A stretch of 59,972 bases of DNA from a virus (IMGVR_UViG_3300041402_000464:1-59972), one strand, 5' to 3'; numbered from the stretch's first letter, positions 5,460 to 54,200 are shown. Notes: generated by a model not told the origin, from the letters alone. Numbers and translations: made by a program.

Positions 5460-5642
5460 ATGAAAATGTTGGGAAAATTATTATTTACATTACTGTTCCC
5501 GTGGTGGCTGTTTAAAGCAATTATATTTTGGAAGAAGAATACAGCATTTATGTTTGTACAATACGGGATGCTATATGAAAATATGTTTGTCGGTAAAGAA
5601 GGATTCAAGGATTGGGTTGACATTACATTTTCGCTAAAATAG
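5460..5642 (+). CDS. Small membrane protein flanked by 16-bp direct repeats
   Basis: GAGG RBS, hydrophobic LLFTLLFPWWLF; AGTTTCATAAATCAAA at 5428-5443 and 5647-5662. Confidence 0.5.
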   Translation: MKMLGKLLFTLLFPWWLFKAIIFWKKNTAFMFVQYGMLYENMFVGKEGFKDWVDITFSLK

Positions 5643-5947: not shown

Positions 5948-7222
5948 ATGATCATGGATGAGAAGAATGAAATACAGGTAGTTGATTTTGAAAAGTTGCC
6001 AATAGATTACAGCGATACTGGTGTAACGGAAGCAGTATTGACGAAACTAAAGGAGGACTACGGTGTAGCTCCTGACTGTAGCACGAAAGAAGGATATGCT
6101 ATAGCAAAGGCAGGCCTTACGTTACTTCGGACGCTCAGGGTTAAAATAGAAGCAAAGCGTAAGAAAAATAACGCCGGGGCCGTTTCGTATAAAAAGAGGA
6201 ACGATGGTGAGGCAGCAGGCTATATTTCTTTCATAGTTGCCTTAGAGGAGCCCATGAAAGCAGGAAAGCAGGTTCAGGACGCCATCAAGGAAGAAGAAAA
6301 GAGGGTTAAGGCCGAGAAAGAGAAGGAGAGGGTAGCCGCCATCGAGAAGGATATCAACACGATAAGGAACGTCGTTCTTGACTGCCATGGTAAAACCTCT
6401 CTTGAATTGTCCGGGATAATCGGATCTCTTGAGGAAACTGAGATCGCCTTAGATCGCTTTGCCGAGCATACACCTATAGCCGAGGCTGCAAAGATTGAGG
6501 CTATTGAGAAGCTTGAAGAAATGAGAGATCAGGCTTTGATTACTGAAAAGGCCGACGAAGAGCGCATAGCCGAGGATGCAAGGTTGGTTGCGGAGCGTGA
6601 AAAGCTTGAGGAAGAACGCAAGATTGAGGATAAAAGGCTGGACGATGAGCGTGAAAAACTTAGGCTTGAAGGACTTGAAGCTGGTCGTATATCAAAGATC
6701 AAAGATAAGATTCAGGCCATAAAGGACCGGGGCGCCTATGACCCAGATGCGACGGCAGAGAAGATATTGGGCCGGATTCATGTTTTAGAAAATACACGGG
6801 CAAGTAAAGAGGTCTTTGAAGAATTCACCGAAGATGCTCACATGGCCTGTGGTCTCGCGCTGTCTGCGCTTAAAGATTTCCATACCGTGAGAGTTGAGAA
6901 AGAGAGGTTGACAGCGGTAGCGGCCGAGGAAGCTATTAAGGCCGACGAAGAGGCTGCGGAGTTAGAGGCTTCTAATACTGAGGCACCCGAGGAAGAACCT
7001 CTTTCTGGTGAAGATGATGAGGTTGTTGATGCCGAGTTTGTTGAGGAAGAAAATCAGGTAGACGCGGTAAAGACAAACGAAGATATCGAATTTGCAGATC
7101 GTATGGCTTTCGTTGATGCCCTTGTCAAACTCTTCCCTGCTGTTCCCACTCCAACCGCGAACGGTATTTATCGCGCCATGAAAGAGGGTAAGATACCTTT
7201 TAAATTCATAGGAGGTGAATAA
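5948..7222 (+). CDS. Long coiled-coil early protein (DUF1351-like)
   Basis: Glu/Lys/Ala-rich heptads; sits upstream of the RecE/RecT module. Confidence 0.55.
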   Translation: MIMDEKNEIQVVDFEKLPIDYSDTGVTEAVLTKLKEDYGVAPDCSTKEGYAIAKAGLTLLRTLRVKIEAKRKKNNAGAVSYKKRNDGEAAGYISFIVALEEPMKAGKQVQDAIKEEEKRVKAEKEKERVAAIEKDINTIRNVVLDCHGKTSLELSGIIGSLEETEIALDRFAEHTPIAEAAKIEAIEKLEEMRDQALITEKADEERIAEDARLVAEREKLEEERKIEDKRLDDEREKLRLEGLEAGRISKIKDKIQAIKDRGAYDPDATAEKILGRIHVLENTRASKEVFEEFTEDAHMACGLALSALKDFHTVRVEKERLTAVAAEEAIKADEEAAELEASNTEAPEEEPLSGEDDEVVDAEFVEEENQVDAVKTNEDIEFADRMAFVDALVKLFPAVPTPTANGIYRAMKEGKIPFKFIGGE

Positions 7223-7560
7223 TGTCCCAGATAAATGATCTATGCCGTAAGGCGCACGAAACAGCCAAGGAGAAAGGCTGGCATGAAAAGGAGGTACCGG
7301 TATCTGAATTTATCTCTAATACTCATGGCGAGCTATCAGAGGCCTTTGAAGAATACAGAAAAGGGTTCCCTTTGAGAGCAATATATTATTCTGGCGAGGA
7401 AAAGGAGAAGCCAGAGGGTTTTTCTGTTGAACTCGCTGATGCAGTTGTCAGAATTTTCGACTTCTGCGGTCTCCATGGTATTGATCTCGAAAAAGCCATA
7501 CAGATAAAAATGGCTTTCAATAAAACCAGATCATACCGCCACGGGGGGAAGATCGTATGA
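7222..7560 (+). CDS. MazG-like nucleotide pyrophosphohydrolase
   Basis: HGELSEAFEEYR...ELADAVVRIFD...KMAFNKTRSYRHGGK. Confidence 0.85.
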   Translation: MSQINDLCRKAHETAKEKGWHEKEVPVSEFISNTHGELSEAFEEYRKGFPLRAIYYSGEEKEKPEGFSVELADAVVRIFDFCGLHGIDLEKAIQIKMAFNKTRSYRHGGKIV

Positions 7561-8408
7561 GTGATATCCCGGAGAAGATAATCCTTGAGCCAGGTATCTA
7601 TCCAGATATCTCCAATGAAGACTATCACAATAAAATTGAGGGGGTAAGCAACTCTTGGCTGCAAAAATTCAAGTATTGCCCTGCTAATGCCATACTTCAA
7701 CAGAATAGTGAGGCAGATCACTTTGTTTTCGGACGAGCCTTTCACGCCTTAGTCTTGGAAGGCCCCGTTGTTTTCAATAACGAGTTTGCTGTTTCTCCTG
7801 ACCCGCCCTGCCCTGCCGATAGAAACCCTAAAGGATGGCGTAATACAACTGATTATAAGGCTGCCATAGCAAAATTTAAGGCTCAAAATATAGGCAAAGC
7901 TCTCATAAGCTTGGAAGACTACAAACACCTCAAAGGGATGGACTCTGCGGTCAAGAAACATCCTCTAAGCAAAGAGGTCTTAAAAGACGGTATTCCTGAG
8001 CAAACTGTTATCTGGATAGATGAAGACACGGGGCTAAGGTGTAAGTGTAGACCTGATTGGATACCCACTGGTGACAACAATGCTTTAGCTGATCTTAAAT
8101 CTGCGAAGGGTGCGGCCTACCATGCATTCAAAAGATCTATGTGGGATTATGGTTATGATCGGCAGGCTGCTTTTTATCTTGATGGATACAATGCGGCAAC
8201 AGGTTCAGAGTTTGATGCCTTTGTTTTCCCTGTAGTAGAGAAGAAACCTCCATATCTAACAGGTTGTTATCCTGTGGGCGAAGAAAGTATGACCAGGGGG
8301 AGAGTGGAATATAAAAAGCTTTTAGGCCAGGTAAAGGAATGTATGGAAACCGGATACTGGCCACCTTATGTTCTTGATTGGCGAGAGCCAGATCAAAGCG
8401 AACTTTAA
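7557..8408 (+). CDS. recE: RecE-like exonuclease VIII (PD-(D/E)xK, DUF3799)
   Basis: GIYPDISNEDYH, FGRAFHALVLE, CKCRPDW, DLKS, YDRQAAFYLDG. Confidence 0.85.
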   Translation: MSDIPEKIILEPGIYPDISNEDYHNKIEGVSNSWLQKFKYCPANAILQQNSEADHFVFGRAFHALVLEGPVVFNNEFAVSPDPPCPADRNPKGWRNTTDYKAAIAKFKAQNIGKALISLEDYKHLKGMDSAVKKHPLSKEVLKDGIPEQTVIWIDEDTGLRCKCRPDWIPTGDNNALADLKSAKGAAYHAFKRSMWDYGYDRQAAFYLDGYNAATGSEFDAFVFPVVEKKPPYLTGCYPVGEESMTRGRVEYKKLLGQVKECMETGYWPPYVLDWREPDQSEL

Positions 8409-8794: not shown

Positions 8795-9841
8795 ATGTCT
8801 GAAAGAAAACAGTTTGAACTGATGGCGCTGGAGGCTAAAGGTGCCTTCTTAAAGGTTTCCGATGAGGCAACTTTCAGTAAGGAGATTATGTATGCCTTGC
8901 AGATATTAAGGGGGAGTTCGTACTTACAAAGATGTGCGCCTCAAACGATTAAAAACGCTGTCACAAACATAGCTTTGACAGGTGCAACATTAAATCCTGC
9001 GCTACAACAGGCGTTTCTTATACCTAGAAATATAATGGTAGACGGCAAAAAAGTAATGTCCTGCTGCCTAGATTTCTCTTACAGGGGCCTCATTAAGATT
9101 GCAACCGATACCGGAAGCGTTACCCATTGGGATGCTGTAGAGGTTTTCGAGGGTGACGACTTTGGAATAATACAGGGTTCCGAAAATCCTCACGTTCATC
9201 ATATCCCAAAATTCCCACGCGACCCACAAGCTCCATTAATAGCTGTTTATTCCAGAGCAACCCTGCATAACGGGGATAAGTCTTTTCTGGTCATGGAGAG
9301 GCATGAAATTGAGGCCACAAGGAAGACCTCTCAATGCCCTGAATCCCCAGCTTGGAAAAATCAATACGGGGAGATGTCTAAAAAAACGGTAATGAAACGG
9401 CACTACAAGACTCTACCCCAGACAGATCGCATGGCCGAGGCTATTCAGGTCTTAAATGAGCATGAGGGCTTCGAGGTCAAAAAGAAGGGTGATAAGGCTA
9501 AAGATATCCTCAATAGATTCGGCTGTGATAATTCGGAAGAGGCTGAATACACAGATATGAACGAGACTCCAAGAGGTGAAGAGGCGTCGGTAGAGAAGAA
9601 ACCGGAAGCAGCCCCTGGAAGCCCCGAGAAGAAGGAAGCTGCCAAACCAAAGGGTAGTGCCTCTCCTGCACAGATCAAGAAGATTCAAACCGTTATGAGC
9701 GAGATGGGCCTTAAGTCCGAAGACGAGCAGCTTGATTGGATTACTTTCAACTTCGAGATCAAGATACCTGCGGTTGACGGCCTAAGTAAAGATCAGGCTA
9801 ATCAGATCATCAAAGGTCTTGAGAAAACAGGTAAAAAGTAA
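8795..9841 (+). CDS. recT: RecT-family ssDNA annealing protein
   Basis: TLNPALQQAFLIPR, SYRGLIKIA, PAWKNQYGEMSKKTVMKRHYKTLP. Confidence 0.9.
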   Translation: MSERKQFELMALEAKGAFLKVSDEATFSKEIMYALQILRGSSYLQRCAPQTIKNAVTNIALTGATLNPALQQAFLIPRNIMVDGKKVMSCCLDFSYRGLIKIATDTGSVTHWDAVEVFEGDDFGIIQGSENPHVHHIPKFPRDPQAPLIAVYSRATLHNGDKSFLVMERHEIEATRKTSQCPESPAWKNQYGEMSKKTVMKRHYKTLPQTDRMAEAIQVLNEHEGFEVKKKGDKAKDILNRFGCDNSEEAEYTDMNETPRGEEASVEKKPEAAPGSPEKKEAAKPKGSASPAQIKKIQTVMSEMGLKSEDEQLDWITFNFEIKIPAVDGLSKDQANQIIKGLEKTGKK

Positions 9842-9847
9842 TTCAAT

Positions 9848-10032
9848 TTGTGAGGTGGCGGAATAGGTAAACGCAGGTGTCTAATTTCTACAACCTTGTC
9901 GATGTCGCAATAGTAGAGGCAGAAGAGAGTAATGGCAATTGCAGGGTGACTATACAGGTAACAAATTGATAGCCACAAATAAAACGGAGACAATGGCTGG
10001 CGCTCCATCCTGTCAAATCCCTGCCCTCACAA
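9848..10032 (+). ncRNA. tRNA-like structured RNA with enlarged anticodon and T regions
   Basis: Acceptor-like TTGTGAGG/CCTCACAA, D-arm TGGCGGAATAGGTAAACGC, split T-stem GCAGGG...CAAATCCCTGC. Confidence 0.5.
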
Positions 10033-10050
10033 TTCATTTAAGGAGATATT

Positions 10051-10458
10051 ATGGGTAAGCGTGGTGAGATTCATCCGGTATACGGTATGACGGAAGCGGC
10101 TTTCTTTGGTAAGTTTAGAGCAGCCATAAGGAAGGAATGGCGCAATAGTAAAATGTATAAAGATGTAGTCTTAAAGGCACGAATACCATGCACCGACGGT
10201 AGTAGAAAGAAGTGGGTAGTGCCTTGCGCTGACTGCGGTACGTTATATTATCTTGACCAAAGAATTAAGGTTCCTACTGCCGATGGCAAGAAGATGAAAG
10301 ATGTTCCGGCATACCAAAGAGATCATAAGACTGACGCTGGTTCATGTAGGACGTTTAAAGAGATAGGGGAGTTTGCTGAGAAAATGAATTGTCCATCTGA
10401 AGAGTTGCAGATAATGTGCTACCACTGTCACTATAAGAAAACACATAAAAAGGAGTAG
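10051..10458 (+). CDS. Zn-binding HNH-like phage endonuclease
   Basis: CADCG ... RDH ... LQIMCYHCHYKKT. Confidence 0.65.
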   Translation: MGKRGEIHPVYGMTEAAFFGKFRAAIRKEWRNSKMYKDVVLKARIPCTDGSRKKWVVPCADCGTLYYLDQRIKVPTADGKKMKDVPAYQRDHKTDAGSCRTFKEIGEFAEKMNCPSEELQIMCYHCHYKKTHKKE

Positions 10459-10464
10459 GTTGCC

Positions 10465-10947
10465 ATGGCAAGTGAATCAACTCAGTTCAAAGAAGGCGAG
10501 GAACACACCAACTGGAAAGGTGGATATTATTATGATGCTTGTGGATACAAAAGAATATTAATATCCAAAAATACCTATCGGTGTGAGCATGTACTTGTCA
10601 TGGAAAAACATCTTGGCAGAAACCTGTTAGCAGATGAGATTGTCCATCATAAAAATGGGGTAAGGGACGATAACAGGTTAGAAAATTTAGAGTTGATGTC
10701 TCGGAGCCAGCACAACCGACTTCATCAAACCGGGAAAAAGGCTTCGGAAGAAACAAGGGCAAAATTTAGGCGTCTCAGGAAGGGTACAAATCAAAAAGAA
10801 AGTCATAACCAGTGGAGGTCTGATATAACTAAAGACAAAGTAATAGATGTTATCGCGCAAACAAAAACATTTAAAGAGGCAGCTAAATTTTTAAATATAA
10901 CTGCCGATGCACTAAGGATACGACGAAAATATTATAATTTAAAATAA
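10465..10947 (+). CDS. HNH homing endonuclease (NUMOD3-like tail)
   Basis: NWKGG, EHVLVMEKHLGR, VHHKNGVRDDNRLENLELMSRSQHNRLH. Confidence 0.9.
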   Translation: MASESTQFKEGEEHTNWKGGYYYDACGYKRILISKNTYRCEHVLVMEKHLGRNLLADEIVHHKNGVRDDNRLENLELMSRSQHNRLHQTGKKASEETRAKFRRLRKGTNQKESHNQWRSDITKDKVIDVIAQTKTFKEAAKFLNITADALRIRRKYYNLK

Positions 10948-10959
10948 GGAGGTTTAAAT

Positions 10960-11397
10960 ATGTCAGGTTTAAATAAGGTCCAGCTCATTGGTAATGTGTG
11001 TCATGACCTTGAAGTGAGATACACAAAAAGCGGCCAGGCCGTGACGAGTTTTAGTCTTGCAACTAATGAAAGGTGGACGAAAAAAGACGGCACAAAAGAG
11101 GACAAGACAGAATTTCATCGCATTGTGATCTGGGGGAAGCTGGCTGAAATATCAGGGGAATATCTCTCTAAAGGAAAACAAATTTACGTCGAGGGTAAAA
11201 ATCAGACAAGGGAGTGGGACGATAAAGAGGGTAATAAGAAGCAGACTACAGAGGTTGTGTGTCACGTTATGACTATGCTTGGTCAGGCTTCGGGTTCTTC
11301 CTCTCCGTCTACTGGTGACAGTTCTGCTTCGTCTGGTGGCCAACAAAGCTCAAGCGATGGAGAACCAGACTTCGAGGACGACGACATCCCTTTTTGA
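10960..11397 (+). CDS. ssb: Single-stranded DNA-binding protein
   Basis: LNKVQLIGN OB-fold start, C-terminal DDDIPF. Confidence 0.97.
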   Translation: MSGLNKVQLIGNVCHDLEVRYTKSGQAVTSFSLATNERWTKKDGTKEDKTEFHRIVIWGKLAEISGEYLSKGKQIYVEGKNQTREWDDKEGNKKQTTEVVCHVMTMLGQASGSSSPSTGDSSASSGGQQSSSDGEPDFEDDDIPF

Positions 11398-11519
11398 TCT
11401 ACAATTTGTGAGGTGGCAACAAAGCCTGTCAATCAACTGTCAATTGCATTGATACCTAACGGGCCTCACGATCCTTAATTTCATTGAATCCACTATTACA
11501 GTGGATTCATTAAAGGGAA

Positions 11520-11643
11520 GGATAACGCCATTATCAGCGGCCGCATTTAGAAGGGAGACCTATGAACACTGAAACGGGAACAGAAAGCAACACAGATCAA
11601 AGTGAGACAACGGTTAGCGGTCGGTTGCATAAATTTGTTATGC
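11520..11643 (-). repeat. attC site A (124 bp)
   Basis: Minus strand: GCATAAC AAATT TATGCAAC CGACCGC...GCGGCC GCTGATA ATGGC GTTATCC. Confidence 0.8.
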
Positions 11644-11876
11644 CTGTCGTGCTTGGAGAAGGTAAAAAGTGGGATCGGACAATCCCCTTCTCAAAACTAA
11701 GCGAGGAACTGGCTGAAAGGAAACTCGGGCAAACTTTAAAACAACTGATGGAGTGTGGTGGGGTATCCCCCAGCGAAGCAATAGCTATTATGGAGGGCGA
11801 CGCTTGGAATCATGTATCCGATAAAATTGGTTTAGAGATATTAAACCATATATTCTATGCAGCACCAAAGGCATAA
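11562..11876 (+). CDS. Cassette 1 hypothetical protein
   Basis: RBS and ATG inside attC A loop; stop TAA in core of site B; GQTLKQLMECGGVSPSEAIAIM. Confidence 0.7.
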   Translation: MNTETGTESNTDQSETTVSGRLHKFVMPVVLGEGKKWDRTIPFSKLSEELAERKLGQTLKQLMECGGVSPSEAIAIMEGDAWNHVSDKIGLEILNHIFYAAPKA

Positions 11877-11997
11877 CGACCAAGATCAGGGGCTTGCGGG
11901 CCACCTGAGACAAAGGAGGAATTAAGACAATGACTGAAGAAGCGAAAACCCCAGACGAAACTAGTGGTAGCGAGTCCCTTGCAGCGCCTGGTTCTGC
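11871..11997 (-). repeat. attC site B (127 bp)
   Basis: Minus strand: GCAGAAC CAGGC GCTGCAAG GGACTCGC...GCAAGCC CCTGATC TTGGTC GTTATGC. Confidence 0.85.
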
Positions 11998-12211
11998 CGC
12001 GCCTAGATATTTTACCGTGGGGGAACTTTGGGGGCCATGCCCATGCTTAGTGGATGGATGCCCGAGTTATCTGGCTTGGACTATTAAATTGACTGCCGAG
12101 GAAAATAATAAGCTACCCGAGCAATCTGGACCGGAAGCTGTAAAATATATATTCAAGCATAAATTAGGAATACCAATGTGTGAAAGTTGCTTGGGAAAAG
12201 AAAAGCGGTAG
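11930..12211 (+). CDS. Cassette 2 Cys-rich hypothetical protein
   Basis: GGAGGA RBS and ATG inside attC B loop; CPC/CxxC motifs. Confidence 0.7.
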   Translation: MTEEAKTPDETSGSESLAAPGSAAPRYFTVGELWGPCPCLVDGCPSYLAWTIKLTAEENNKLPEQSGPEAVKYIFKHKLGIPMCESCLGKEKR

Positions 12212-12414
12212 AACAATTAAGCTCAGGGTCTTCGGACGCTGGAGGAGGCGGAAAGATGGATTGTGTAAATACAGAATGTGATGGATATGATGAAAACTGT
12301 GTGGATAACTGTAGTGCGTCAGATATGTATAAAGCTGAAGAGTGTTGTGACTATAAACCCCTTAAAGCCCAGACAGAACCCGTGGCCGAAGTACCTTGCA
12401 GCGCCGGGTTATCT
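12208..12414 (-). repeat. attC site C (207 bp, long coding loop)
   Basis: Minus strand: AGATAAC CCGGC GCTGCAAG GTACTTCGG...CCGAAGAC CCTGAGC TTAATT GTTCTAC. Confidence 0.85.
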
Positions 12415-12570
12415 GTGGAGCTATTAAAAGAAAGATGTGAGGGACTAGAAACCATTCAAACCTGTTTCGAAGATGCGGCAAAAAATGTGATTACCGGATG
12501 GGAATCGGATGATAAGCAAATGTTTATTAGAGGGATAAAGGGATTGCAGATATTAATGGGGAACAGATAA
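12256..12570 (+). CDS. Cassette 3 Cys-rich hypothetical protein
   Basis: GGAGGAGG RBS, ATG 12256 inside attC C loop; stop in core of site D. Confidence 0.7.
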   Translation: MDCVNTECDGYDENCVDNCSASDMYKAEECCDYKPLKAQTEPVAEVPCSAGLSVELLKERCEGLETIQTCFEDAAKNVITGWESDDKQMFIRGIKGLQILMGNR

Positions 12571-12620
12571 CTATGAATTCAGAGCGAGCGTTAGCGATGC
12601 GCTGCAATGGCGTGTTATGG
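12565..12620 (-). repeat. attC site D (56 bp)
   Basis: Minus strand: CCATAAC ACGCC ATTGCAGC GCATCGCTAACGCTCGC TCTGAAT TCATA GTTATCT. Confidence 0.85.
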
Positions 12621-12647
12621 CACATGATTATCTAGGAGGATAAAAAA

Positions 12648-12848
12648 ATGGGGTTGGTAAACGGATTATTAAGATGTAAAAACTCTACAAGTGGAGAACA
12701 TTCTTGGAGAGGCTCGGACGAACAGAGAGCGCCTAGAGACAGAGGCAAGCCCGAAGTGTGTAGCTTATGCAATCAATTTCTTGAAACCGTAAAGAAGAGA
12801 ACAGAAGATTATCGTCAAGCCCTAGAAGAAGGGCGCGAAACATTTTAG
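12648..12848 (+). CDS. Cassette 4 hypothetical protein
   Basis: AGGAGG RBS; C...H...CSLC. Confidence 0.65.
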   Translation: MGLVNGLLRCKNSTSGEHSWRGSDEQRAPRDRGKPEVCSLCNQFLETVKKRTEDYRQALEEGRETF

Positions 12849-12855
12849 GATTGTG

Positions 12856-12925
12856 CCATAACTGTGAGCTAAATCGCTGACATAAACGAAGTGTTGGCAG
12901 TCGAAATTTCAGCGCTTTGTTATGC
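12856..12925 (-). repeat. attC site E (70 bp)
   Basis: Minus strand: GCATAAC AAAGC GCTGAAAT...ATTTAGC TCACA GTTATGG. Confidence 0.8.
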
Positions 12926-12948
12926 GCTGGCTAATTAAGGAGGATAAA

Positions 12949-13152
12949 TTGGAAGAGATGATAAATAAGATATGCGGTCAATTGCCGGAAGGCTGGGAAA
13001 TAAACTTGTGCATGGAAAACGGTGCGGCCTGGGTGGAGTTAATTAGCCAGAACGGAAACGGAGGAGAGGACATGCATATAGATGGGGGAGATAAAACCCT
13101 TGAAGAGCAATTAAATGAGGCATTGTGTGTTGCTAACGGGTTTAGCGCATAA
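12949..13152 (+). CDS. Cassette 5 hypothetical protein
   Basis: AGGAGG RBS then TTG (or ATG 12958); LPEGWEINLCMENGAAWVEL; stop in core of site F. Confidence 0.7.
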   Translation: MEEMINKICGQLPEGWEINLCMENGAAWVELISQNGNGGEDMHIDGGDKTLEEQLNEALCVANGFSA

Positions 13153-13275
13153 CGATGGAGCTAACCAGCCACGGGGTAAAGGCTAAAGCCCTCAAGTTAG
13201 CATTATTATTTATTAACCTTTCCCTTATCCAACTTGACACCTCTGTTAGTGGTCTGGTTGAGCGTGGGGTTAGGT
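13147..13275 (-). repeat. attC site F (129 bp)
   Basis: Minus strand: ACCTAAC CCCAC GCTCAACC AGACCAC...GTGGCT GGTTAGC TCCATC GTTATGC. Confidence 0.9.
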
Positions 13276-13796
13276 GATGAAGCGTTGGTTGAAATATCTT
13301 CCTTTTGCGGCAACGGTTCGGCTGTTTTTTTATGAAGAGCCGATGACTGAGAAGCGGATACTTCTTGAGACACTGTATTTTTCATTTTTGCTTGGAGGTA
13401 TATCGTGCCCATTGACGCTGTGGCTGCTATTAAAGCTCCAAGCAGGGCACCAATGAAAGCAAAAATTGCTAATTTTTTAGATAAAGCAATTTGCTTGCCG
13501 TGAATTTCAAGAGTGAGGTCTTCTTGTTTCTGATAAATTTCACGTGTAAGTTCAGCTTGTTTATCGTGAAGACGTCTAGCAGAAGAAGATTGATCGGAGG
13601 CAAGATTATGGTTGGCGCGAAGTTGTTCTTCAAGAAGTTGTTCGTTGAGACTATGTTGCTCTTCAAGTGACTTGTTTTTTAGAACAAGTTTAATAATCTC
13701 GAAGTCTGAGCTGGTGCCACCAAGTTGAGCAATAGCATGACAAAGATCAGATGGTTGCATGGAACTATAATATAAAAATTTTTCTGATGGATTCAT
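13206..13796 (-). CDS. Cassette 6 coiled-coil protein with TM helix (only canonically oriented cassette gene)
   Basis: 196-aa ORF, TM LAIFAFIGALLGALIAATAS; starts just after core of site G and reads into attC F. Confidence 0.7.
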   Translation of the reverse strand: MNPSEKFLYYSSMQPSDLCHAIAQLGGTSSDFEIIKLVLKNKSLEEQHSLNEQLLEEQLRANHNLASDQSSSARRLHDKQAELTREIYQKQEDLTLEIHGKQIALSKKLAIFAFIGALLGALIAATASMGTIYLQAKMKNTVSQEVSASQSSALHKKTAEPLPQKEDISTNASSPNPTLNQTTNRGVKLDKGKVNK

Positions 13797-13805
13797 ATTT
13801 TAAAC

Positions 13806-13876
13806 ACCTAACGAAAAAGCTAACCCTGTTGGCTGAACGGAGTGAAGACAATCCGTGGTTGAGCGCGGGGTTAGAC
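13806..13876 (-). repeat. attC site G (71 bp)
   Basis: Minus strand: GTCTAAC CCCGC GCTCAACC...GGTTAGC TTTTTC GTTAGGT. Confidence 0.9.
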
Positions 13877-13891
13877 AAAATGGAGGTTGAC

Positions 13892-14095
13892 ATGGGATGG
13901 TTAACAAGGTTATTTGGGCAGAGTGGGAAAGTAAGGTTTGAAGGCGTGACTATCGAAGGGCAAAAATTTACAGGGAAAGTTAAAATAGAAATATTTAACA
14001 TGGACAAAGAGGAAATTGAAGCCAAGCTGAAAGATATGCTTTATGTAGAAACTGGACAGAAAGCAAGAGAGCTTCATATTGTGGCTTTTGTCTAA
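13892..14095 (+). CDS. Cassette 7 hypothetical protein
   Basis: GGAGG RBS, MGWLTRLFG; stop in core of site H. Confidence 0.7.
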   Translation: MGWLTRLFGQSGKVRFEGVTIEGQKFTGKVKIEIFNMDKEEIEAKLKDMLYVETGQKARELHIVAFV

Positions 14096-14154
14096 CGACC
14101 AAGATCACCGGAAGGCACCGCAGGTGACTTTCCGTGTGAAGCGCATTGTTATCT
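14090..14154 (-). repeat. attC site H (65 bp)
   Basis: Minus strand: AGATAAC AATGC GCTTCACAC GGAAAG...CCTTCC GGTGATC TTGGTC GTTAGAC. Confidence 0.8.
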
Positions 14155-14181
14155 TGCGCTATTAATAGAGAGGATAAGTCA

Positions 14182-14361
14182 ATGAATGATTTTATAAAGT
14201 TATTGAAGAAGTTACTTGTTGCCGAAAACAATAAAACAGAGGAAGAAGCTGAAAGGATTGTGAAGAAGCATCCTAACATTGTGACGCAGGGGATTATGAG
14301 CAACAGATTGAGAGCGACAGCTATGGCATTAGAAATGGCCGAAGATAAGGAAGCAAGATAA
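14182..14361 (+). CDS. Cassette 8 hypothetical protein
   Basis: GAGAGG RBS; stop in terminal core site. Confidence 0.65.
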   Translation: MNDFIKLLKKLLVAENNKTEEEAERIVKKHPNIVTQGIMSNRLRATAMALEMAEDKEAR

Positions 14362-14385
14362 CCTTAGAATATGTGGACATTTAAT
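14356..14385 (-). other. attI-like / primary insertion site (single core, no hairpin partner)
   Basis: Minus strand ...GTCCACATATTCTAAG-GTTATCTTGC; core complementary to the other end of cassette 8. Confidence 0.5.
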
Positions 14386-14398
14386 CTTGAGATAGATT

Positions 14399-14770
14399 GT
14401 GGATAAGTTTGCTAAACATAAGAAACTTAGAAAGAATCAGCGTAATAGGAAGCAATATTTGCGCTTAAATTCTGACGAGCCTATTCGAGAACCATATTAT
14501 CAGCCACCCCAGTTAAGAGGTATCAGGATTTACGGCGACATGGATATGGGATATCTCAGGCTTATCTATATTTCCTTATGGAATAGCGGAAGGATCGACT
14601 CATATTTTGTCAGAAGAGAAAAGCCTGAGAATATAGGCCATAGACCTAAACTGGATGATGATCATAAAGGCTGGTGGTTGGACGATGGAGGCAATAAAAA
14701 GAAATATGGCAAGGTCAACCTTGATAAAGAGATTAGACGCGCTATGCCTGGAATAAGAAGGTTTGATTAG
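14399..14770 (+). CDS. Hypothetical basic protein
   Basis: 123-aa ORF, no tyrosine-recombinase motifs. Confidence 0.55.
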   Translation: MDKFAKHKKLRKNQRNRKQYLRLNSDEPIREPYYQPPQLRGIRIYGDMDMGYLRLIYISLWNSGRIDSYFVRREKPENIGHRPKLDDDHKGWWLDDGGNKKKYGKVNLDKEIRRAMPGIRRFD

Positions 14771-14772
14771 GC

Positions 14773-14801
14773 TTGACAATTACAAGAGTAAACCATAGGA
14801 T
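14773..14801 (+). promoter_or_regulatory. Sigma70 promoter of replication operon
   Basis: TTGACA-17nt-TAGGAT. Confidence 0.7.
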
Positions 14802-14875
14802 TAAGTATCGTTGAGTTTTGGCGATCTTCAAATACCTTTTGCGAGGACTGAAATGAAAAAATACTTTAAACATAG

Positions 14876-14956
14876 AACCCCCTTGTTATGGATGCTGGTT
14901 GCTGAAAGGCGCTGGAGCGGTCATTTCCCGTTCGCAAACTCCATGACAAGGGGGTT
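14876..14956 (+). ncRNA. Structured leader RNA, C4-antisense-like
   Basis: 17-bp stem AACCCCCTTGTTATGGA/TCCATGACAAGGGGGTT; inner CGGTC and TCGCAAA complementary to upstream TTTGCGAGGACTG. Confidence 0.45.
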
Positions 14957-14977
14957 GTGCGTTTAAGGGAGACTGTT

Positions 14978-15355
14978 ATGGAGATAAAGGAATGCCCAAA
15001 ATGTAAGTCCACGAAAGGTTACTATTTTAAAAACACGGGAAGCTATAAAGAGGCCCACTTATTCAACATTTGTGCACCTAGAGACGAGAGATTCAAAGAC
15101 ATGCACGGCTCTTTAAAGGTGTCGAGTTTAGGTAAAAACGCTTTTTGTATAACTTGTGACAGAAGGTTAGAGGAATTAGACAGGAGTCCCGACATGAAAG
15201 AGAAAAAGTTAGAGTATTATAAGGTGATCGCAGACGGCAAAGATCAAGGCATTATATTAAAAACCCACAAGCAGAAAGTGCGCACTATGAAAGTCCTCAG
15301 AGGAATAAAATTAGTTACAGCTACCGAAGAAGACATTAAAAGATACAACGGATAA
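14978..15355 (+). CDS. Zn-ribbon hypothetical protein
   Basis: CPKC ... CITC; GGGAG RBS. Confidence 0.6.
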   Translation: MEIKECPKCKSTKGYYFKNTGSYKEAHLFNICAPRDERFKDMHGSLKVSSLGKNAFCITCDRRLEELDRSPDMKEKKLEYYKVIADGKDQGIILKTHKQKVRTMKVLRGIKLVTATEEDIKRYNG

Positions 15356-15364
15356 AGGTATTAA

Positions 15365-16162
15365 ATGAAACATAATTACGTCCCAGATGGATGCTTTCTC
15401 TTAGCCAGACAGATATTTGAATCTGCTATATGGAGAGATGATCCGCACGTCCTGAAGTTGTTTATTTATTTGATGGGACAGGCTCGACATAATACGAAGC
15501 CTAAAAAATATCCTTCTTTTGAGGTCAAGCGGGGGGAACTGGTAACAAGTCTTGCAAAAATCTCTGAAGAAAATGAGTATAGCCAGAACGGAACTATCAA
15601 AACTTGGCCCCGAATGAAGATATCTAGGATGCTTGATTTACTAGAAAAACAGGGTTACGTTAAGAAGCTTTGTGACACCTATGGTACACATATAAGTATA
15701 TGTAATTACAACACTTATCAGGATATCAACAACTACAAGTGTGACAGTGGTGGTACACAAGTGTTACAGGACTGTTACAGCGGTGTTACAGGGGTGTTAC
15801 TAAACAAGAATGTAAAGAAAGGTAAGAATGTAAAGAAAGAACCGTCAGTAGGGTTTGAAGATTTCTATAAAGCATACCCTAAAAAGAAAAGCAAAGGTCA
15901 AGCTGAGAAAACTTGGCATAAGCTTTCCCCTGATAGCGATCTTTTAAAAGAAATACTAATAGGCTTAGAGTCAGCTAAGAAGTCTGAGGACTGGACCAAG
16001 GACAATGGTAAGTATATTCCTCACCCATCAACGTGGCTAAATGCTAAAGGATGGGAAGACGAAATAACCGAGTCTAAAGACTATGAAGTAATTATAGACG
16101 GCGTATCTACTCCCATGACCGAAACAGAGTATAAGCAATGGAAGGTTGATAATGAAAGATGA
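15365..16162 (+). CDS. Phage replication initiator (replisome organizer)
   Basis: KRGELVTSLAKI, ISICNYNTYQ, FEDFYKAYPKKKSK, KYIPHPSTWLNAKGWEDE; internal iterons. Confidence 0.85.
   Translation: MKHNYVPDGCFLLARQIFESAIWRDDPHVLKLFIYLMGQARHNTKPKKYPSFEVKRGELVTSLAKISEENEYSQNGTIKTWPRMKISRMLDLLEKQGYVKKLCDTYGTHISICNYNTYQDINNYKCDSGGTQVLQDCYSGVTGVLLNKNVKKGKNVKKEPSVGFEDFYKAYPKKKSKGQAEKTWHKLSPDSDLLKEILIGLESAKKSEDWTKDNGKYIPHPSTWLNAKGWEDEITESKDYEVIIDGVSTPMTETEYKQWKVDNER
15739..15840 (+). repeat. Putative replication origin: iterons plus A-rich repeat inside the initiator gene
   Basis: TGTTACAG at 15762, 15773, 15784 and TGTTACTA at 15795 (11-nt period), then AAGAATGTAAAGAAAG twice. Confidence 0.75.
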
Positions 16163-17189
16163 CGGATACATGGACGACTTGGCTGCTGAAAATGAAGCTA
16201 TAGACCGTATTGAGCATTTAGAGGGGAAAGTATCCTTGTGGGTACTTCAAGCACATGGCGAGTTTAGATTATCTGAAATTGTTAAGGACTTAGGCATAAC
16301 TTCAAGCGACGATGTTAGCGGTTTGAAGGATGCTCTCTATGGGTTGTGCTGTGCTGGCAAGATCAAGGAGAATAAAAAGAAGAACGGAGTATACAGAAAG
16401 CTTGATATTGAATTAAATAAAATGAAGCGGGTAGAGAACAGGCCCCTGCCGATGGATCTAATTTGGCCACTTAAATTACATGAAAGGGTTATTACTAATA
16501 TTGGATCGCTCATCGTTGTAGCTGGGATTCCTAATTCTGGGAAGAGTTGTTTCTTTTTGAATTTTGCCGATATGAATAAAGATAAATATAAAATCAGATA
16601 TGTTTCGTCTGAGTGGACAAACGCGGAAAGGGATGAACAGCTTGAAAGCTTCGGGGCAGATATCGACGAATGGGACAGTAAGATAGATTTCTACGCAAAA
16701 AAAGATGTAACAAGTTCATTTGATAATTATATCGACCCTGAGAATATTACAATTATAGACTATTTTGAGAGCTATGATGATTATGCAGGCATAGCAGGGG
16801 CATTAAGGGATATTGCCGATAAACTCACTACGGGTATCGCCATTGTAGGACTGCAAAAAAAGATTGGTGCTGCTCATGGTAGCGGAGGTGAGGGAACTAA
16901 AAACAGGGCTCAACTTTATATAAATATAGATAGAAACGAACTTGATCCCCGGAAACGAATTGCTACTATCACGAAACTAAAGAAGGCCACCGATAGAAAG
17001 TACAGCATAGAGCATTTGAGTTGCGAGTTTGAGTACAGCGACAAAGGCCGCATGGTAGAGCAAACAGGATGGGGCAAGATAGTTGAGATGAAGCAGAAGA
17101 ACGTATTGGTGGAGAAATATATCCAGGTAGAGCGTTGGGCTAACCAGAAACCTAAAGAGGAAGAGGAGCCAATATCATGGACCAGGTAA
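16152..17189 (+). CDS. P-loop ATPase, RecA/DnaB-like helicase
   Basis: Walker A AGIPNSGKS, Walker B ITIIDY; coupled to initiator. Confidence 0.75.
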   Translation: MKDDGYMDDLAAENEAIDRIEHLEGKVSLWVLQAHGEFRLSEIVKDLGITSSDDVSGLKDALYGLCCAGKIKENKKKNGVYRKLDIELNKMKRVENRPLPMDLIWPLKLHERVITNIGSLIVVAGIPNSGKSCFFLNFADMNKDKYKIRYVSSEWTNAERDEQLESFGADIDEWDSKIDFYAKKDVTSSFDNYIDPENITIIDYFESYDDYAGIAGALRDIADKLTTGIAIVGLQKKIGAAHGSGGEGTKNRAQLYINIDRNELDPRKRIATITKLKKATDRKYSIEHLSCEFEYSDKGRMVEQTGWGKIVEMKQKNVLVEKYIQVERWANQKPKEEEEPISWTR

Positions 17190-26567: not shown

Positions 26568-28340
26568 ATGTCAGAAAAAAAAGATAAACTATCTAAAATA
26601 GCAGAGCTTAAAAAACCTTTCCTTGAGAGCTTTTCCTATTATGCTCCCCGGTGCCTTAAAATCCAGATTGAGGACACTACAAAGGGCTCTAACCTGATTC
26701 CTTTTACACTCAAGACGACTCAGCGCGTCATGGAGGCCATACTTAAAGATATTAAGGCAAAGGGGCGCCTTATCCGTGTTCTCATCCTTAAGGCCAGACG
26801 ACAGGGCCTCAGTACATGGGTTGGTGGCCGTGCCTACTGGCATACGTCGAATAAGTTTAACCGGTATGCCGTGACAGTAACACATGAGCCAGAAGCAACC
26901 GACTTCATCTTTAAGATGACTAAGCGTTTCCATAATCTCGTTCCTGAGATATTCAAGCCCCAAACAAAACAGAATAATGCAAAGCTCCTTGAGTTTAACA
27001 ACAAGGAAGGTACAGGCCTTGACTCTGCCTTTCGTGTGGGTACAGCCGGTAAGAGTGACTATGGTTCTGGACAGCTTATCCACTATCTGCATTGCTCCGA
27101 AGTTGCCAAGTGGCCGAAAGAGACCGCGACGGACCTCTTGACCTCTCTACTACAGACAGTTCCGAAAGATCCGGACACGGAAATATATCTTGAATCGACT
27201 GCCAGGGGGATCGGCGGTGAGTTCCATACACGCTTCAAGGGCGCAAGGTTTAGGTATATAGCCAAGATCAATAAAGAGGGCCGTATATCCTATAGCTCAG
27301 AGATTAATGAAGATGCAGAACTGAGTAATCAGTATTCCATGGTTTTTATTCCTTGGTATATTGACCCTAAATACCAGATGCCTGTATCTGAATATGAGGA
27401 TATGACAAACTCTACCTTCGAGCTTAATGAGGAAGAGCGTCAAATGAAGGATGAGCATAACCTTATTGTAGATCATCTTGTATGGCGTCGATGGGCTATC
27501 TCTAACCTTTGTGGTGGCAATATAGAAACATTTTGGCAGGAATACCCTACCACATGGGAAGAAGCTTTCCTGACTTCCGGTAATCCCCTCTTTGATAATA
27601 AGAAGCTCTCTATTCTCAAAAAGAACGCTCCGACGCCCATCGCCCGATATGATCTTCTTTTCCATAATCATCAATGGACGGTAGAGAAACACGGCAAGCT
27701 CCGAGTGTGGAAAGAACCGGAACCAGGCAGGCATTACATAGTCGGTGCCGATATTTCCGAAGGCCTCACCACGGGAGACTTTAGTTGTGCCGATGTGATT
27801 GATCATCTGACGGGTGAACAGGTGGCACATTGGCACGGCAAGATAGATATAGACCTATTTGCTAAGGTTTTATTCTATTTAGCGACACGCTATAATAACG
27901 CATGGCTGGGACCGGAAAAGAATAACGCAGGAATAGGCGTCATCAATCGTCTGCATAATGATATGGAATATGCCAAACTCTATGTCGAGCAGGTTCCTGA
28001 TCCGCCGAATAAGTCAAAGAAACGCTATGGATGGGTAACAAACAAATCAACTAAATATGAAATGACGCAATATCTCATTGAGGACGTCCGGGAAGACTCC
28101 CACGGCATTAAGTGTGCCGAGACCTTTGAAGAGATGATGAGTTTTAAAGAGCAGGAGAACGGGAAGAGAGAGGCCGATGCCGGATGCTTTGATGACAGGG
28201 TAATGTCTATGGCCATAGCCAAGATACTGAGGGTTAAACTTCCCCCTCCCAGCAGGACAAATAAGCCGGGCGGTTTTCAGCCAAAGGGTAGGATTGGAAG
28301 AGGAAACAGAGGAAGACAGGCCTTAAAGGGGATTGTATGA
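26568..28340 (+). CDS. terL: Terminase large subunit
   Basis: ILKARRQGLST, LHCSEVAKW, ESTARG, QEYP, GADISEG, FDDRVMSMAIA. Confidence 0.95.
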   Translation: MSEKKDKLSKIAELKKPFLESFSYYAPRCLKIQIEDTTKGSNLIPFTLKTTQRVMEAILKDIKAKGRLIRVLILKARRQGLSTWVGGRAYWHTSNKFNRYAVTVTHEPEATDFIFKMTKRFHNLVPEIFKPQTKQNNAKLLEFNNKEGTGLDSAFRVGTAGKSDYGSGQLIHYLHCSEVAKWPKETATDLLTSLLQTVPKDPDTEIYLESTARGIGGEFHTRFKGARFRYIAKINKEGRISYSSEINEDAELSNQYSMVFIPWYIDPKYQMPVSEYEDMTNSTFELNEEERQMKDEHNLIVDHLVWRRWAISNLCGGNIETFWQEYPTTWEEAFLTSGNPLFDNKKLSILKKNAPTPIARYDLLFHNHQWTVEKHGKLRVWKEPEPGRHYIVGADISEGLTTGDFSCADVIDHLTGEQVAHWHGKIDIDLFAKVLFYLATRYNNAWLGPEKNNAGIGVINRLHNDMEYAKLYVEQVPDPPNKSKKRYGWVTNKSTKYEMTQYLIEDVREDSHGIKCAETFEEMMSFKEQENGKREADAGCFDDRVMSMAIAKILRVKLPPPSRTNKPGGFQPKGRIGRGNRGRQALKGIV

Positions 28341-51240: not shown

Positions 51241-54200
51241 TTGAAGGAAGTCACTGACCCTAATATATTAAGCCAGCTTGACGCCGAAGAACCAGCAGGG
51301 AAGGAAGTCACCGACCCTGCTATTATTTCTCAACTTGATGCAGGAACGCCAACCGGTAAACCTGTAACAGATCCCAATATATTAAGTCAACTTGAAGCGC
51401 CCTCCCCAGAATTATCAGAACCTAATAGACTTCGGGCTAAGTATGGTTTTCCTCCTATTGAAGATGTGCCGGCTGCTATCCCAGAACCGGGATATGACGT
51501 TCTTGGCGGGGTGGCTGATATAGGTAAGCTCTTATATGATATCCCTATTCAAACTAAAGGTGCCATAGCTCGACTTGCCGAAGAAGAAGATCCTCTTGCT
51601 ACAATCGATTGGCGCGATAGATGGGTTGAAGAGGCCGGGGCCAGAACAGAAAAAAGAATAGAAGAGCTTGGCGAAAAAGGCGAAGAGAAGGTTTTACCTT
51701 GGGTTACAAGAGGTGATATAGCTGAAACATCTGGAAGTACCGGATTCTCTCTTGCAAGTATGGCCGCTGGTGCGGCTGGTGCTGGTGCTGGTTTTATTTC
51801 GCCTGTTCCTGGTGGAGCCGCAATAGGTATGTTGGGCGCCTCGGGTGCGGCAGCCTACAAAATGGATAAGACTGCCTTTACCGCCGATCTGTTTGCTGCT
51901 ACAGAAAATGCTCTTGGCAGAAAAATGACTCCGGTTGAACGCAAAGAGTTACTTGAAAAAACAGCAGATGCAAGAGAAAGCCATGCACTTTGGGAAGCTG
52001 GGCCAGAAGCAATAGGTAATCTTCTTTCTATAGTTGGAGTGGGTCAGATATTTAAAGCGGCAGGTGGTAAAAATGTTATAAAGAAAATCGTCAAAGGTCT
52101 TGCTGGGATATATGGTGGAGAACTTACCACTGAGACTGTTACACAGATTGGACAACAACGAGCCGAAGTAGCCGCTGGTTTGTCAGACGAAGAAGCACGT
52201 TCCTTTTTATCTCTCGAAGATATAGCAACTTCATTTAAGGAAATCGCACCATCCGTAACAGTCTTGTCCTCCCTTATGGCTGGTGGTGGCGCTGTTGCTG
52301 GCGGTGTAAGTAGACAGTTAAAAAAGAAAAAAGAAGAGGCAATCCCCTCCCCTGCCCCCATAGAAGGTCAAGACACCGTTGATGCAGCCATAACAGAAGA
52401 CATCAGAAAACCTACCACGGATGAACTGGTAGAAGAGGCATATCAAAGACAGCAAGCCGCTAGACCTGCCGAGGCTATCCCTGAAAAAGAAACCGATATA
52501 CAGACACTTTTAAGAGAGATCAAGGAAGCGAAGGCCGAAGAAGCAGCACCCGGCAAAAGAGCCAAGGTTCAAGAACTTGTTGAGGAAGCTCACATTAAAC
52601 AGCAGGCCATCCCCACGGAAGCTATTGACTCTCAAGAAACCGTTGACGAGCAGATCAGGGAAGATATAACCAGAGAACCCACCGAAGAAGAAGGGTTGGA
52701 AGAGATCGGACCTGTTGAGGTTTTCCGTGTAGACAATGCCAGCGGTGCTAAAAGAGATCATTTCACTTTTGTCGGTCCCAATGCAAGGGCTGTAGCAGAG
52801 AGGGAAGCCGCGAAACTTGCCACAGCAGAAGGGCAACCTCAAAAGGTTTATGCTGTTCCCCCAGAAGAGGTTTTTGATAAAGGCGGTGTTAAGGTAGGCG
52901 AGTGGGCTCCTGGTGCTGATGTTTATGAAAACAAAGAAAAACTTGATACGGCCAAATTTGAAGCTGTGACAGATGCTATACAGCCTATGTCCGATGAAAG
53001 GATAAGGTCTTTAAATCGACTTAGAGCTATAAAGCAAAGCCCTGAACAGGCAGAAGCAGCAGCGCAGCGTCTTGGAGTAGATAGTTCAGAGATTGTTACA
53101 GCAGCCGAGAACATAGAAAAAAACGGTATGCCTACCAATGATATAGAGAGAGCCCTTGTCAATCTTGCATGGGCCGATGAACTTACCGAACAGGCACAGG
53201 TAGAGGCACCAGCTCCAATAGAAGAAGCGCCGATACAGGCAGCACTTCCTTTTGCTCCCGAAGCGGAGGCTGTGACTCCCGTTGCTCCCGAAATTGAAGA
53301 GATCGAGAGGCCAGCAGGTGTCTTCGATGATCTCTTTGCGGAAGCCAAAAAACCAAAGGCGCCTAAAAAGGTGAAAGCGGAGATCGCGGCTATCCCCACT
53401 AAAAAACCTGTCAAGGCAGAGATAGTGGGCGAGGTTTACGCAGGAGAGAAGGACGGATATAAGCTTTATGTTGATGAGGCCGCTGGTAAGAGGATTATTG
53501 AGCATCCATCTGGATCAAGGCTTGTAGAGACCACTAAAGACGGCAAGAAGACCGTTGAGGTGATCGGCAGCGCAGATGATTTTGGCAAAAGGACCACTGT
53601 TCAGGAATTGGACGACGCCAGGGAGTTAGGTGTTTCACTGGAAGCCAGGAGGCCGGAAGCTGACACCGGCATCTCTAAGCCTACGCGCGATAGTAGTCCT
53701 GCCGACACCAAATTGTTTGGCGATATTTCTAATGCTGAGGCCATCAGAGTACAAGGATTTAAGTCTCTCGACAGGGAGAGGCAACATATGGTGGTCTCTA
53801 GTATGGTTTCCGCGCTTCACGAGAAGAAGATTCTCGATTTTATTATTGAGACCGTTCCCATCAATGTGATGAACAGCCTCATCGGAAAGAAGTTTTCTGC
53901 CAAGGGATTGCTCGATAACCCAGCGATGCTCACCGATAGGCTTGCCATCCCGAGTAACAAAGCGATACCGATGCCTGTAATCAGATTTATTGATTCTTTG
54001 GCGTCCTCGCTCAAAGGTGGACTTACACGCCTTGGTGCAAAAAAATCTAGTTTGATTTTCCCTGTAACCCCAAGCGGTGCTATAGTTGATACCACAATTA
54101 GTGCAGACCAAGACCCTGCTAGACCTGTAACTAGATTGGCACGTCTTGGAGCAGAAGAACTTGATTTGCCCAGACCTGATACGACCATTCCTTCTACTGA

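Follow-up and report, generated by a model that had tools for sequence, protein, structure and literature searches.

The marine-sediment phage record IMGVR_UViG_3300041402_000464 (59,972 bases, with direct terminal repeats and rated 100% complete; the whole record is called the window here) carries eight cassette genes in an array with eight hairpin sites of the attC type (A to H, 11520–14154), flanked by ssb on one side and a gene for a replication initiator on the other. An attC site is usually seen as a non-coding hairpin 3' of a gene that is read from the integron promoter; here the sites lie 5' of the gene on its coding strand and appear to be partly translated, and three of them hold a Shine-Dalgarno (SD) sequence and an ATG in their loop. 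That this eight-site array and the SD and ATG in its loops exist is confirmed. We regard it as probable that they form a phage-borne attC array without an integrase, with inverted coding polarity, in which the loops of sites A to C have been turned into translation start regions. The array consists of the following features:

11470–11526, + strand: left border, conserved; includes a hairpin of 9 bp and has AAAGGGAAGGATAA followed by C at its end
11520–11643, + strand: site A, 124 nt; R' GGATAAC, R'' GTTATGC; loop with SD GGGAG and ATG 11562
11562–11876, + strand: gene cA, 104 aa from the loop ATG, 78 aa from ATG 11640 inside R''
11871–11997, + strand: site B, 127 nt; loop with SD AGGAGG and ATG 11930
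11930–12211, + strand: gene cB, 93 aa; attC-derived leader of 21–24 aa and a conserved Cys-containing core
12208–12414, + strand: site C, 207 nt; 5' arm with GGAGGAGG and ATG 12256
12256–12570, + strand: gene cC, 104 aa; stop TAA in the ATAAC of site D
12566–12620, + strand: probable short site D, 55 nt; weakest of the eight, read by eye
12648–12848, + strand: gene cD, 66 aa; own AGGAGG 3' of site D; stop 10 nt ahead of the next core
12856–12925, + strand: short site E, 70 nt
12922–13152, + strand: gene cE; frame open from ATG 12922 within R''; stop TAA in the ATAAC of site F
13147–13275, + strand: site F, 129 nt; Burkholderiales chromosomal-integron type
13206–13796, − strand: sole minus-strand gene, 196 aa (184 aa in the database call); ends inside the loop of site F
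13806–13876, + strand: site G, 71 nt; same type as site F
13892–14095, + strand: gene cG, 67 aa; start after site G (GGAGG); stop TAA in the TCTAAC of site H
14090–14154, + strand: short site H, 65 nt; 5' arm identical to that of site B
14182–14364, + strand: gene cH, 59 aa; ends in ATAA followed by C; right end of the array

AAC and GTT cores with paired flanks were found at all eight sites, with R'' often reading GTTATG, one step off the consensus. The lengths of A (124), B (127), E (70), F (129), G (71) and H (65) lie within the 57–141 bp given in the available text of Nivina et al. 2016 (PMC5027507), with D (55) and C (207) outside that range. Genes and sites overlap at their borders: the TAA of cA is part of the ATAAC of site B, and the TAG of cB directly abuts the AAC of site C. 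An earlier annotation made from the sequence alone (the original prediction) had stated that six of the seven plus-strand genes stop in the core of the next site. The count stands, with cA, cC, cE, cG and cH stopping in (A/C)TAAC and cB in TAG-AAC, but the TAAC of cH (14361–14364) belongs to no next site, as no attC was found 3' of it. The start of cE is likely TTG 12949 or ATG 12958, after an AGGAGG.

Predicted translation starts in the loops of sites A to C

The original prediction placed an SD and an ATG in the loops of sites A, B and C (11562, 11930 and 12256), with frames continuing through the 3' arms, and all of these elements are present in the sequence. Read through the 3' arms, the frames encode ..SGRLHKFVM (A), ..SESLAAPGSA (B) and ..EVPCSAGLS (C), giving proteins of 104, 93 and 104 aa; the sites would supply the ribosome-binding site, the start codon and the first 20–50 codons of the next gene. 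Loop-encoded predicted leaders include MTEEAK.. and MDCVNTECDGYDE.. (cB and cC, starts 11930 and 12256). Site C was correctly described as 207 nt long with a long coding loop: its 150-nt loop encodes a four-Cys module and its 3' arm PVAEVPCSAGL, with about 43 codons (first put at about 45) between ATG 12256 and the 3' arm.

Homologs bear on these starts in different ways. The cB homologs P0013-15 begin with M(DSKP)RYFTV(GEL), and the window sequence reads ..LAAPGSAAPRYFTVGEL (..SAAPRYFTV), with Pro where the homologs have Met. Neither cB nor cC has a Met or an SD-preceded start after its core, and cB therefore needs the loop ATG; on this alignment, cB has lost its ancestral Met. A HMMER search of 1.84 billion representatives with cC found 24 proteins, of which 16 (about 100 aa) align only to residues 1 to about 55, corresponding to the loop and 3' arm, and have unrelated C-terminal halves. 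Relatives of this module share four invariant Cys and KPLxAxxEPVAEVPCSxGL, and the four Cys are invariant across 17 sequences with 28–47% identity to cC. Their conservation on unrelated bodies reflects a protein-level constraint on the loop of an attC-type site. The predicted use of loop starts is thus supported by homologs for cB and cC.

In a comparison suggested in the original prediction, attC-derived N termini vary among homologs and the core is kept, both for cA (six homologs) and for cB (P0013-15). The leader of cA is similar in P0005, different in P0006, P0007 and P0009 and absent in P0008, and the body is conserved in all six homologs; P0011 carries the cA leader at 93% identity on an unrelated body. 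Judged by its homologs, cA itself may start at the ATG inside the R'' core. A search with alignment A5 returned no viral contigs and one metagenome contig.

The hairpins resemble attC sites beyond chance

In a strand-neutral arm-pairing scan of all 2317 AAC..GTT pairs spanning 45–215 nt in the whole window, site F ranked 2, C 3, A 4, B 8, E 10, G 16 or 20 and H 22; site D fell outside the top 40. Rank 1 was taken by a perfect 16-bp hairpin (14865–14967) that lacks bulges and is not attC-like. The attC-like bulge pattern reached a score of at least 8.6 at seven places within the 3-kb array versus three in the 57 kb outside it, and in the best arm alignments of the scored sites each arm keeps a central spacer of 5 or 6 nt. 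Sites G and H, which are short, fold better than shuffled sequences (z-scores from −2.5 to −4.6; G −4.6 as DNA, H −3.9 as DNA and −3.2 as RNA). For site A, both arms are paired in the minimum free energy structure of the RNA.

A pattern search with the F/G 3' arm matched 50 viral-contig stretches, and the majority 20-nt form of this arm matched at least 120 bacterial stretches, mostly from Burkholderiales and many in dense arrays. We built a covariance model, R1, from an alignment of 50 Burkholderiales-type sites, none of them from the window. Its structure has 21 pairs, 89.8% of them paired, and five of the six inner-helix pairs change on both sides. Run on the window with filters off, R1 gave full-length matches on the plus strand only, with E-values of 2e-13 for F, 4e-8 for G, 0.24 for B, 7.1 for E and 8.2 for C.

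The plus strand corresponds to the attC bottom strand

According to the available text of Nivina et al. 2016 (PMC5027507), the attC bottom strand has RYYYAAC in R' at its 5' end and extrahelical bases near L'', the first usually G and the last T with a 6-bp stem between them, and spacers of 5–6 nt. In all seven scored sites of the window (D was not scored), two to four bulges (two in A and in H, four in E) lie in the plus-strand 3' arm and none in the 5' arm. The exact spacing, with a G bulge, a 6-bp stem and a T bulge in the plus-strand 3' arm, was seen by eye only in site F; sites A, B, C and H have C or A and then T at a shorter spacing.

Bacterial arrays of this kind link the polarity to an integrase. 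An integron integrase above the curated cut-off was present in 5/5 bacterial genomes with such arrays, and 3/3 bacterial integrons examined have their array on the 5' side of intI, with intI encoded on the strand that R1 matches. Bacterial cassette genes lie opposite the R1 strand (76:12). Together, the bulge asymmetry, the R1 matches and the intI-linked bacterial polarity indicate that the plus strand, which codes for the phage genes, is the bottom, recombinogenic strand of attC, in agreement with the original prediction, which had assigned the attC (top) strand to the minus strand. As R1 models the bottom strand, the seven plus-strand window genes are inverted relative to canonical cassettes.

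Seven of the eight window genes thus lie on the bottom strand behind their attC, and only the minus-strand gene (13796–13206) has the canonical orientation, relative to site F. From its arrangement, this gene appears to be an ordinary host-design cassette with a bacterial-type attC, and its host-type polarity is what polarity-preserving site-specific insertion would lead one to expect. Only two homologs were found, both distant.

Loop starts and inverted polarity recur in other phage arrays

Across the viral loci, R1 found 194 sites in 53 loci, often in arrays of up to 13. For the loop test, defined as an SD-preceded ATG in the loop with a frame continuing for at least 30 codons past the site, we used the best 150 R1 hits on the viral side, which gave 128 non-redundant sites, and the best 150 of 240 on the bacterial side. 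Such open reading frames (ORFs) were present on the bottom strand at 58 of the 128 viral sites versus 6 of the 150 bacterial sites, and the mirror control on the viral top strand yielded none. Counting loop ATGs with or without an SD, 70 of the 128 viral sites have an ORF, with the SD at 58; none of the 20 top-strand mirror ORFs has one. Frames open through GTTAGGC use both possibilities (28 and 26), and 22 of these 54 ORFs stop in CCTAAC. Cassette genes lie on the bottom strand in a ratio of 79:11 in GC-rich phage contigs versus 12:76 in bacterial arrays. The suggestion that these are a phage-adapted class and not randomly flipped host cassettes is supported by these counts (79:11 versus 12:76, 58/128 versus 6/150, and 0 in the mirror).

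The contigs concerned come from phages. One locus (L008) belongs to a complete record with terminal repeats, in which genes for a single-strand annealing protein (SSAP), a Mu Gam-like protein, a primosomal protein and NinG surround the array. Another, L028 (record G007, 95% complete), shares its gene order with the window: an annealing protein, an exonuclease, an SSB-like gene whose product ends in DDFEDDDIPF, an HNH gene and the array; the GTGAGGTGGC element and the HNH gene are common to both. For the genes 3' of the window and G007 arrays, homology was not demonstrable (E = 0.012). Record G006 (loci L084 and L067; 26 kb, 51% complete) carries about 14 plus-strand cassettes and, downstream on the same strand, an integron integrase (316.8 bits versus a cut-off of 265; 6154–7131 in its locus L247). 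Its last cassette has an ATAAC end, the counterpart of the end of cH, about 60 nt ahead of the integrase ATG, and 3' of the integrase follow genes for tail sheath, tape measure, baseplate, major head and protease, a myovirus-like set. We found no published description of such a layout, in which about 14 cassette genes all point towards a co-directional downstream integrase. In four of the five other phage records tested, no integron integrase was found.

In the low-GC sister loci and the metagenome contig L249, all 21 R1 hits fall on the coding strand, and sister sites of the C type reach 3e-4 to 5.5e-6 with R1. SD-preceded loop ORFs were found at 3/8 sites in the window, 8/10 in G006, 5/8 in L028 and 1/2 in L249, with products of 72–115 aa; pooled over the low-GC arrays, 17 of 28 sites have loop starts. 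The same design is repeated three times on L249 (1–1424), a metagenome contig of 1.4 kb that is independent of the others. Here, a homolog of cA follows a site similar to F and G, in which R' reads TAAT, not TAAC, and next comes a 209-nt C-like site with CxxC..CxxC in its loop. At L028 2412–2568, a loop ORF of only 27 codons overlaps the true start of the cassette gene (region 2412–2600); by its layout it resembles a leader ORF for translational coupling more than a leader fused to the protein. Cargo of the sister arrays includes a restriction-alleviation protein of the Lar family (41.3 bits), encoded behind a C-type site, and an orphan DNA methylase (N6_N4, 51.9 bits). A 330-aa cassette protein of G006 was at one point taken for a C5 methylase; this guess was dropped, with no Pfam hit. 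We also set aside 63 matches to a 15-nt motif common to sites B and H, because their count was about chance level by estimate; L067 and L084 among them are real relatives.

Homology breakpoints at both ends of the sites

The borders of shared DNA bear on which parts move together. The left flanks of the window and G007 are nearly identical up to GGATAAC(G) and unrelated beyond, which places a crossover in the R' box. Within G006, 375 nt are duplicated, with one AAC and the next as borders, and in a comparison of L030 with L049 the shared stretch begins at the R' of the upstream site. Metagenome joints and depth were taken from assembled contigs of three runs. In one contig (run X2), 11527 in the R' of site A is linked directly to 12212 in the R' of site C, and many contigs start at 12212 (AAC), end at 12411–12414 (the end of R'') or swap the loop interior between kept arms. 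Depth on the C-type arms reaches 400–440 versus 0–20 over the rest of the window.

Between the three low-GC arrays, blastn found nearly only the sites themselves to be shared. A B-type site occurs four times in three phages, with copies of site B at 90–92% identity in L028 and twice in G006; C- and H-type sites also recur, and site H is 85% identical to G006 5466–5523. According to the original prediction, a loop moves together with its right-hand neighbour gene. The G006 duplication, the G007 border, the L030/L049 comparison and the joint from 11527 to 12212 agree with this; against it stand near-identical modules, with their loop and leader, on unrelated genes (B-type, C-type and P0011) and a gene body of 99.5% identity that was found behind two different loops. 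As attC modules have been fused to unrelated genes, the proposal is only partly true. The R'' junctions could be explained by homologous recombination in the arms or by a cassette-creating process.

Genomic setting of the array

The plus strand carries nearly all genes of the window. Matches to PHROG families identify these neighbours:

7557–8408: exonuclease VIII-like gene, upstream of the array
8795–9841: RecT, upstream of the array
10960–11397: SSB, upstream of the array
two HNH endonucleases, upstream of the array
15365–16162: replication initiator, downstream of the array
26568–28340: terminase, downstream of the array

These neighbours place the array in an early recombination and replication module. 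A profile search of the whole 59,972-base record found no integron integrase (TIGR02249), and the array was therefore filed as a cluster of attC sites lacking integron integrases (CALIN). Between 9700 and 15400, no terminator-like sites were found on the plus strand and promoter-like sites are not enriched (11 found versus 12.4 expected), which fits read-through from an early operon as far as sequence signals go, and proves nothing. In the GenBank phage collection, window 10000–16200 has no relatives except for a 72% ssb stretch. With the window RecT as query no relatives were found among viral contigs, and the replication protein returned three distant loci, which were uninformative. An Rfam scan of 9700–15100 gave nothing above threshold.

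Several neighbouring elements were noted along the way. The motif CAATTTGTGAGGTGGC lies 3' of both RecT and SSB (window 9845–10045 and 11403–11470; also L251 2880–3085). Its first copy opens a conserved non-coding stretch of 200 nt (..CAGGGTGACTATAC..AAATCCCTGCCCTCACAAT) just 5' of an HNH gene; the stretch is also found 5' of the HNH gene in G007, has no Rfam match and may represent either an RNA with a defined structure or an element associated with homing endonucleases. Further downstream, at 14864–14968, lies a perfect 16-bp inverted repeat (GAACCCCCTTGTTATGGA / TCCATGACAAGGGGGTT) with the flanks TTTAAAC/GTTTAAG, preceded just 5' by a good sigma-70-like promoter (TTGACA-17-TAGGAT, 14773–14801). 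The repeat has a sub-threshold Rfam match to c4-2 antisense RNA (14877–14957; 25.2 bits versus a gathering score of 41), and its high depth in two other metagenomes (126 and 28) marks it as an element that is repeated in the environment. At the far end of the window, a single open frame of at least 2910 codons (51241–59970) reaches the end of the record.

A model for the array and its alternatives

Overall, each unit follows the plan C, attC, gene, ..TAA and leaves no room for spacer DNA. In the model that we propose, the variable end of the attC would, in the three long sites A to C, supply SD, ATG and a hydrophilic or four-Cys leader; the ribosome would then pass through the L''/R'' arm into the gene body and halt at the TAA of the next R' box. 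The array would be transcribed together with the upstream early genes. Units could be exchanged by an integron integrase acting in trans, with crossover between AA and C, and also by homologous recombination in the conserved arms, with RecT and an exonuclease encoded just upstream. Only phage-style cassettes would be expressed, and captured host cassettes, of which the minus-strand gene is an example, would stay antisense. The cargo probably serves anti-restriction or host takeover.

A number of observations weigh against this model. The window has no integrase gene, R1 missed sites A, D and H at E ≤ 10 and recognised B, C and E only weakly, and the long-loop sites fold no better than shuffles, either as DNA or as RNA (z from −0.65 to +1.2). 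At 207 nt, site C is longer than the 57–141 bp range allows. The viral and bacterial sets were fetched with the F/G 3' arm motif, not with A to E or H, and the gene strand in GC-rich loci was chosen by an in-house score of GC content at the three codon positions (GC1/GC2/GC3). None of the eight window cassette proteins belongs to a Pfam or PHROG family. The Met that cA derives from the GTTATG of R'' (M27) is invariant, and the public call starts there, giving 78 aa. Finally, the modules shared between low-GC arrays have different flanking genes on both sides with homology that stops at GTT, one near-identical gene body sits behind different loops, and a bottom-strand integrase crossover cannot make junctions at R''.

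Some of these points would suit hairpins that are attC-like in form only, that is, mobile regulatory or homology modules shuffled by RecT-type recombination with no integrase, in the manner of the promoter/stem-loop (PeSL) cassettes known from T4-type phages. This explanation, which we consider unlikely, would account for phage-to-phage homology confined to the sites between differing flanks, for breakpoints in both arms, for arrays adjoining RecT and exonuclease or SSAP and Gam genes, for the missing integrase in the window and in four of the five other phage records, and for the weak folding of the long sites. However, the same arm sequences build bacterial chromosomal integron arrays with intI, the bulge asymmetry is integrase-specific, the integron integrase of G006 has the canonical position relative to its sites, and the window holds a host-type cassette of preserved polarity; moreover, IntI1 recombined five of six tested phage attC sites in the available text of Qi et al. 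2023 (PMC9892861). A different objection concerns the starts alone: the proteins might begin at or after R'', the attC being an untranslated 5' hairpin and the upstream frames leaders or chance. The public 78-aa call of cA from ATG 11640 with its invariant Met, the loop ORF overlapping the true start at L028 2412–2568 and the five of eight window sites at which the gene starts 3' of the site all fit this, yet we judge it highly unlikely, given that cB and cC lack a Met or SD-preceded start past the core, that the homologs' Met of cB is Pro in the window, that four Cys in the site C loop are invariant in 17 sequences, and that an SD precedes 58 bottom-strand loop ORFs versus 0 of 20 mirror ORFs.

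Stops in TAAC are common in canonical cassettes, and the sites also read RYYYAAC..GTTRRRY on the plus strand, which could then be taken for the attC top strand, with canonical gene-then-attC cassettes whose genes are extended 5' into the preceding site. The end of shared-module homology at GTT would agree with such an arrangement. We find it scarcely credible: the bulge asymmetry holds in 7/7 sites, R1 polarity is tied to intI in G006 as well as in three of three bacterial integrons, the genes of bacterial arrays mostly occupy the other strand (76:12), and a boundary between G and TT would split cA, cB and cC.

Returning to the inverted array with translated loops, a gene-preceding and translated attC would be the rule in phage arrays of at least two unrelated groups, and phage cassette exchange could use the host integrase yet stay separate in expression. 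A large untapped set of small phage early proteins is indicated. The natural joints between attC modules and new genes bear on the origin of cassettes. Gene callers and IntegronFinder-style pipelines, which expect the gene and then the attC, would mis-annotate such arrays; the public cA call omits the leader. More tentatively, and with the odds still somewhat against it in our view, phages may keep a mirror-image cassette pool, in which attC acts as a movable 5' adaptor, bringing along recombination site, ribosome-binding site, start codon and leader and open to in-frame fusion at R'' with any small gene, and polarity is an expression barrier between pools sharing one integrase. If so, phage cassettes would be silent in host integrons and host cassettes silent in phages; near-identical modules joined at GTT would be fresh products of cassette formation, making cassette birth directly observable.

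Comparison with known systems

Searches of openly accessible full texts, supplements not included, gave no description of attC loops with start codons inside them, nor of phage cassettes that are systematically inverted. Inverted coding polarity and translated attC loops, in sites of up to 207 nt, thus appear not to have been described before. Among the closest known systems are the arrays of Qi et al. 2023 (PMC9892861), whose available text reports 17 phage CALINs and recombination by IntI1 of five of six attC sites from virulent phages. Like the window, these phage CALINs and integrons, which occur in virulent and temperate phages, combine attC arrays with small genes mostly unassigned in function and with methyltransferase cargo. 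Unlike them, as far as the available text goes, the window departs from the usual cassette arrangement in its inverted coding polarity and its translated attC loops; the main text of PMC9892861 has no mention of start codons inside attC or of bottom-strand genes, a statement that does not extend to its supplements.

The sedentary chromosomal integrons of Burkholderiales (Rubrivivax, Ideonella, Roseateles, Accumulibacter) share with sites F and G the R', L', L'' and R'' arms, the bulges and the arrangement in one-polarity arrays, and arm sequences of this type also occur in about 190 sites of GC-rich phage contigs. Burkholderiales sites differ in being mostly 129 nt long with a long paired terminal stem and in having an SD and ATG at only 6 of 150; in addition, most of the genes (76:12) are carried on the top strand, and intI adjoins the array. 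Inverted cassettes are found in chromosomal integrons, for example toxin–antitoxin cassettes, with the gene on the attC bottom strand and its own promoter, as a minority in canonical arrays. By comparison, the window array is nearly wholly inverted and promoterless, and its attC would give the translation start. The array also resembles the T4-type PeSL cassettes as presented in the available texts (PMC2839356, PMC4122927), in that a short structured repeat flanks small novel genes in a hyperplastic region and marks exchange points. PeSLs, however, are described there as promoter–terminator motifs without a link to a site-specific recombinase, whereas the motifs of the window are attC sites shared with integrons and, by our reading, partly coding.

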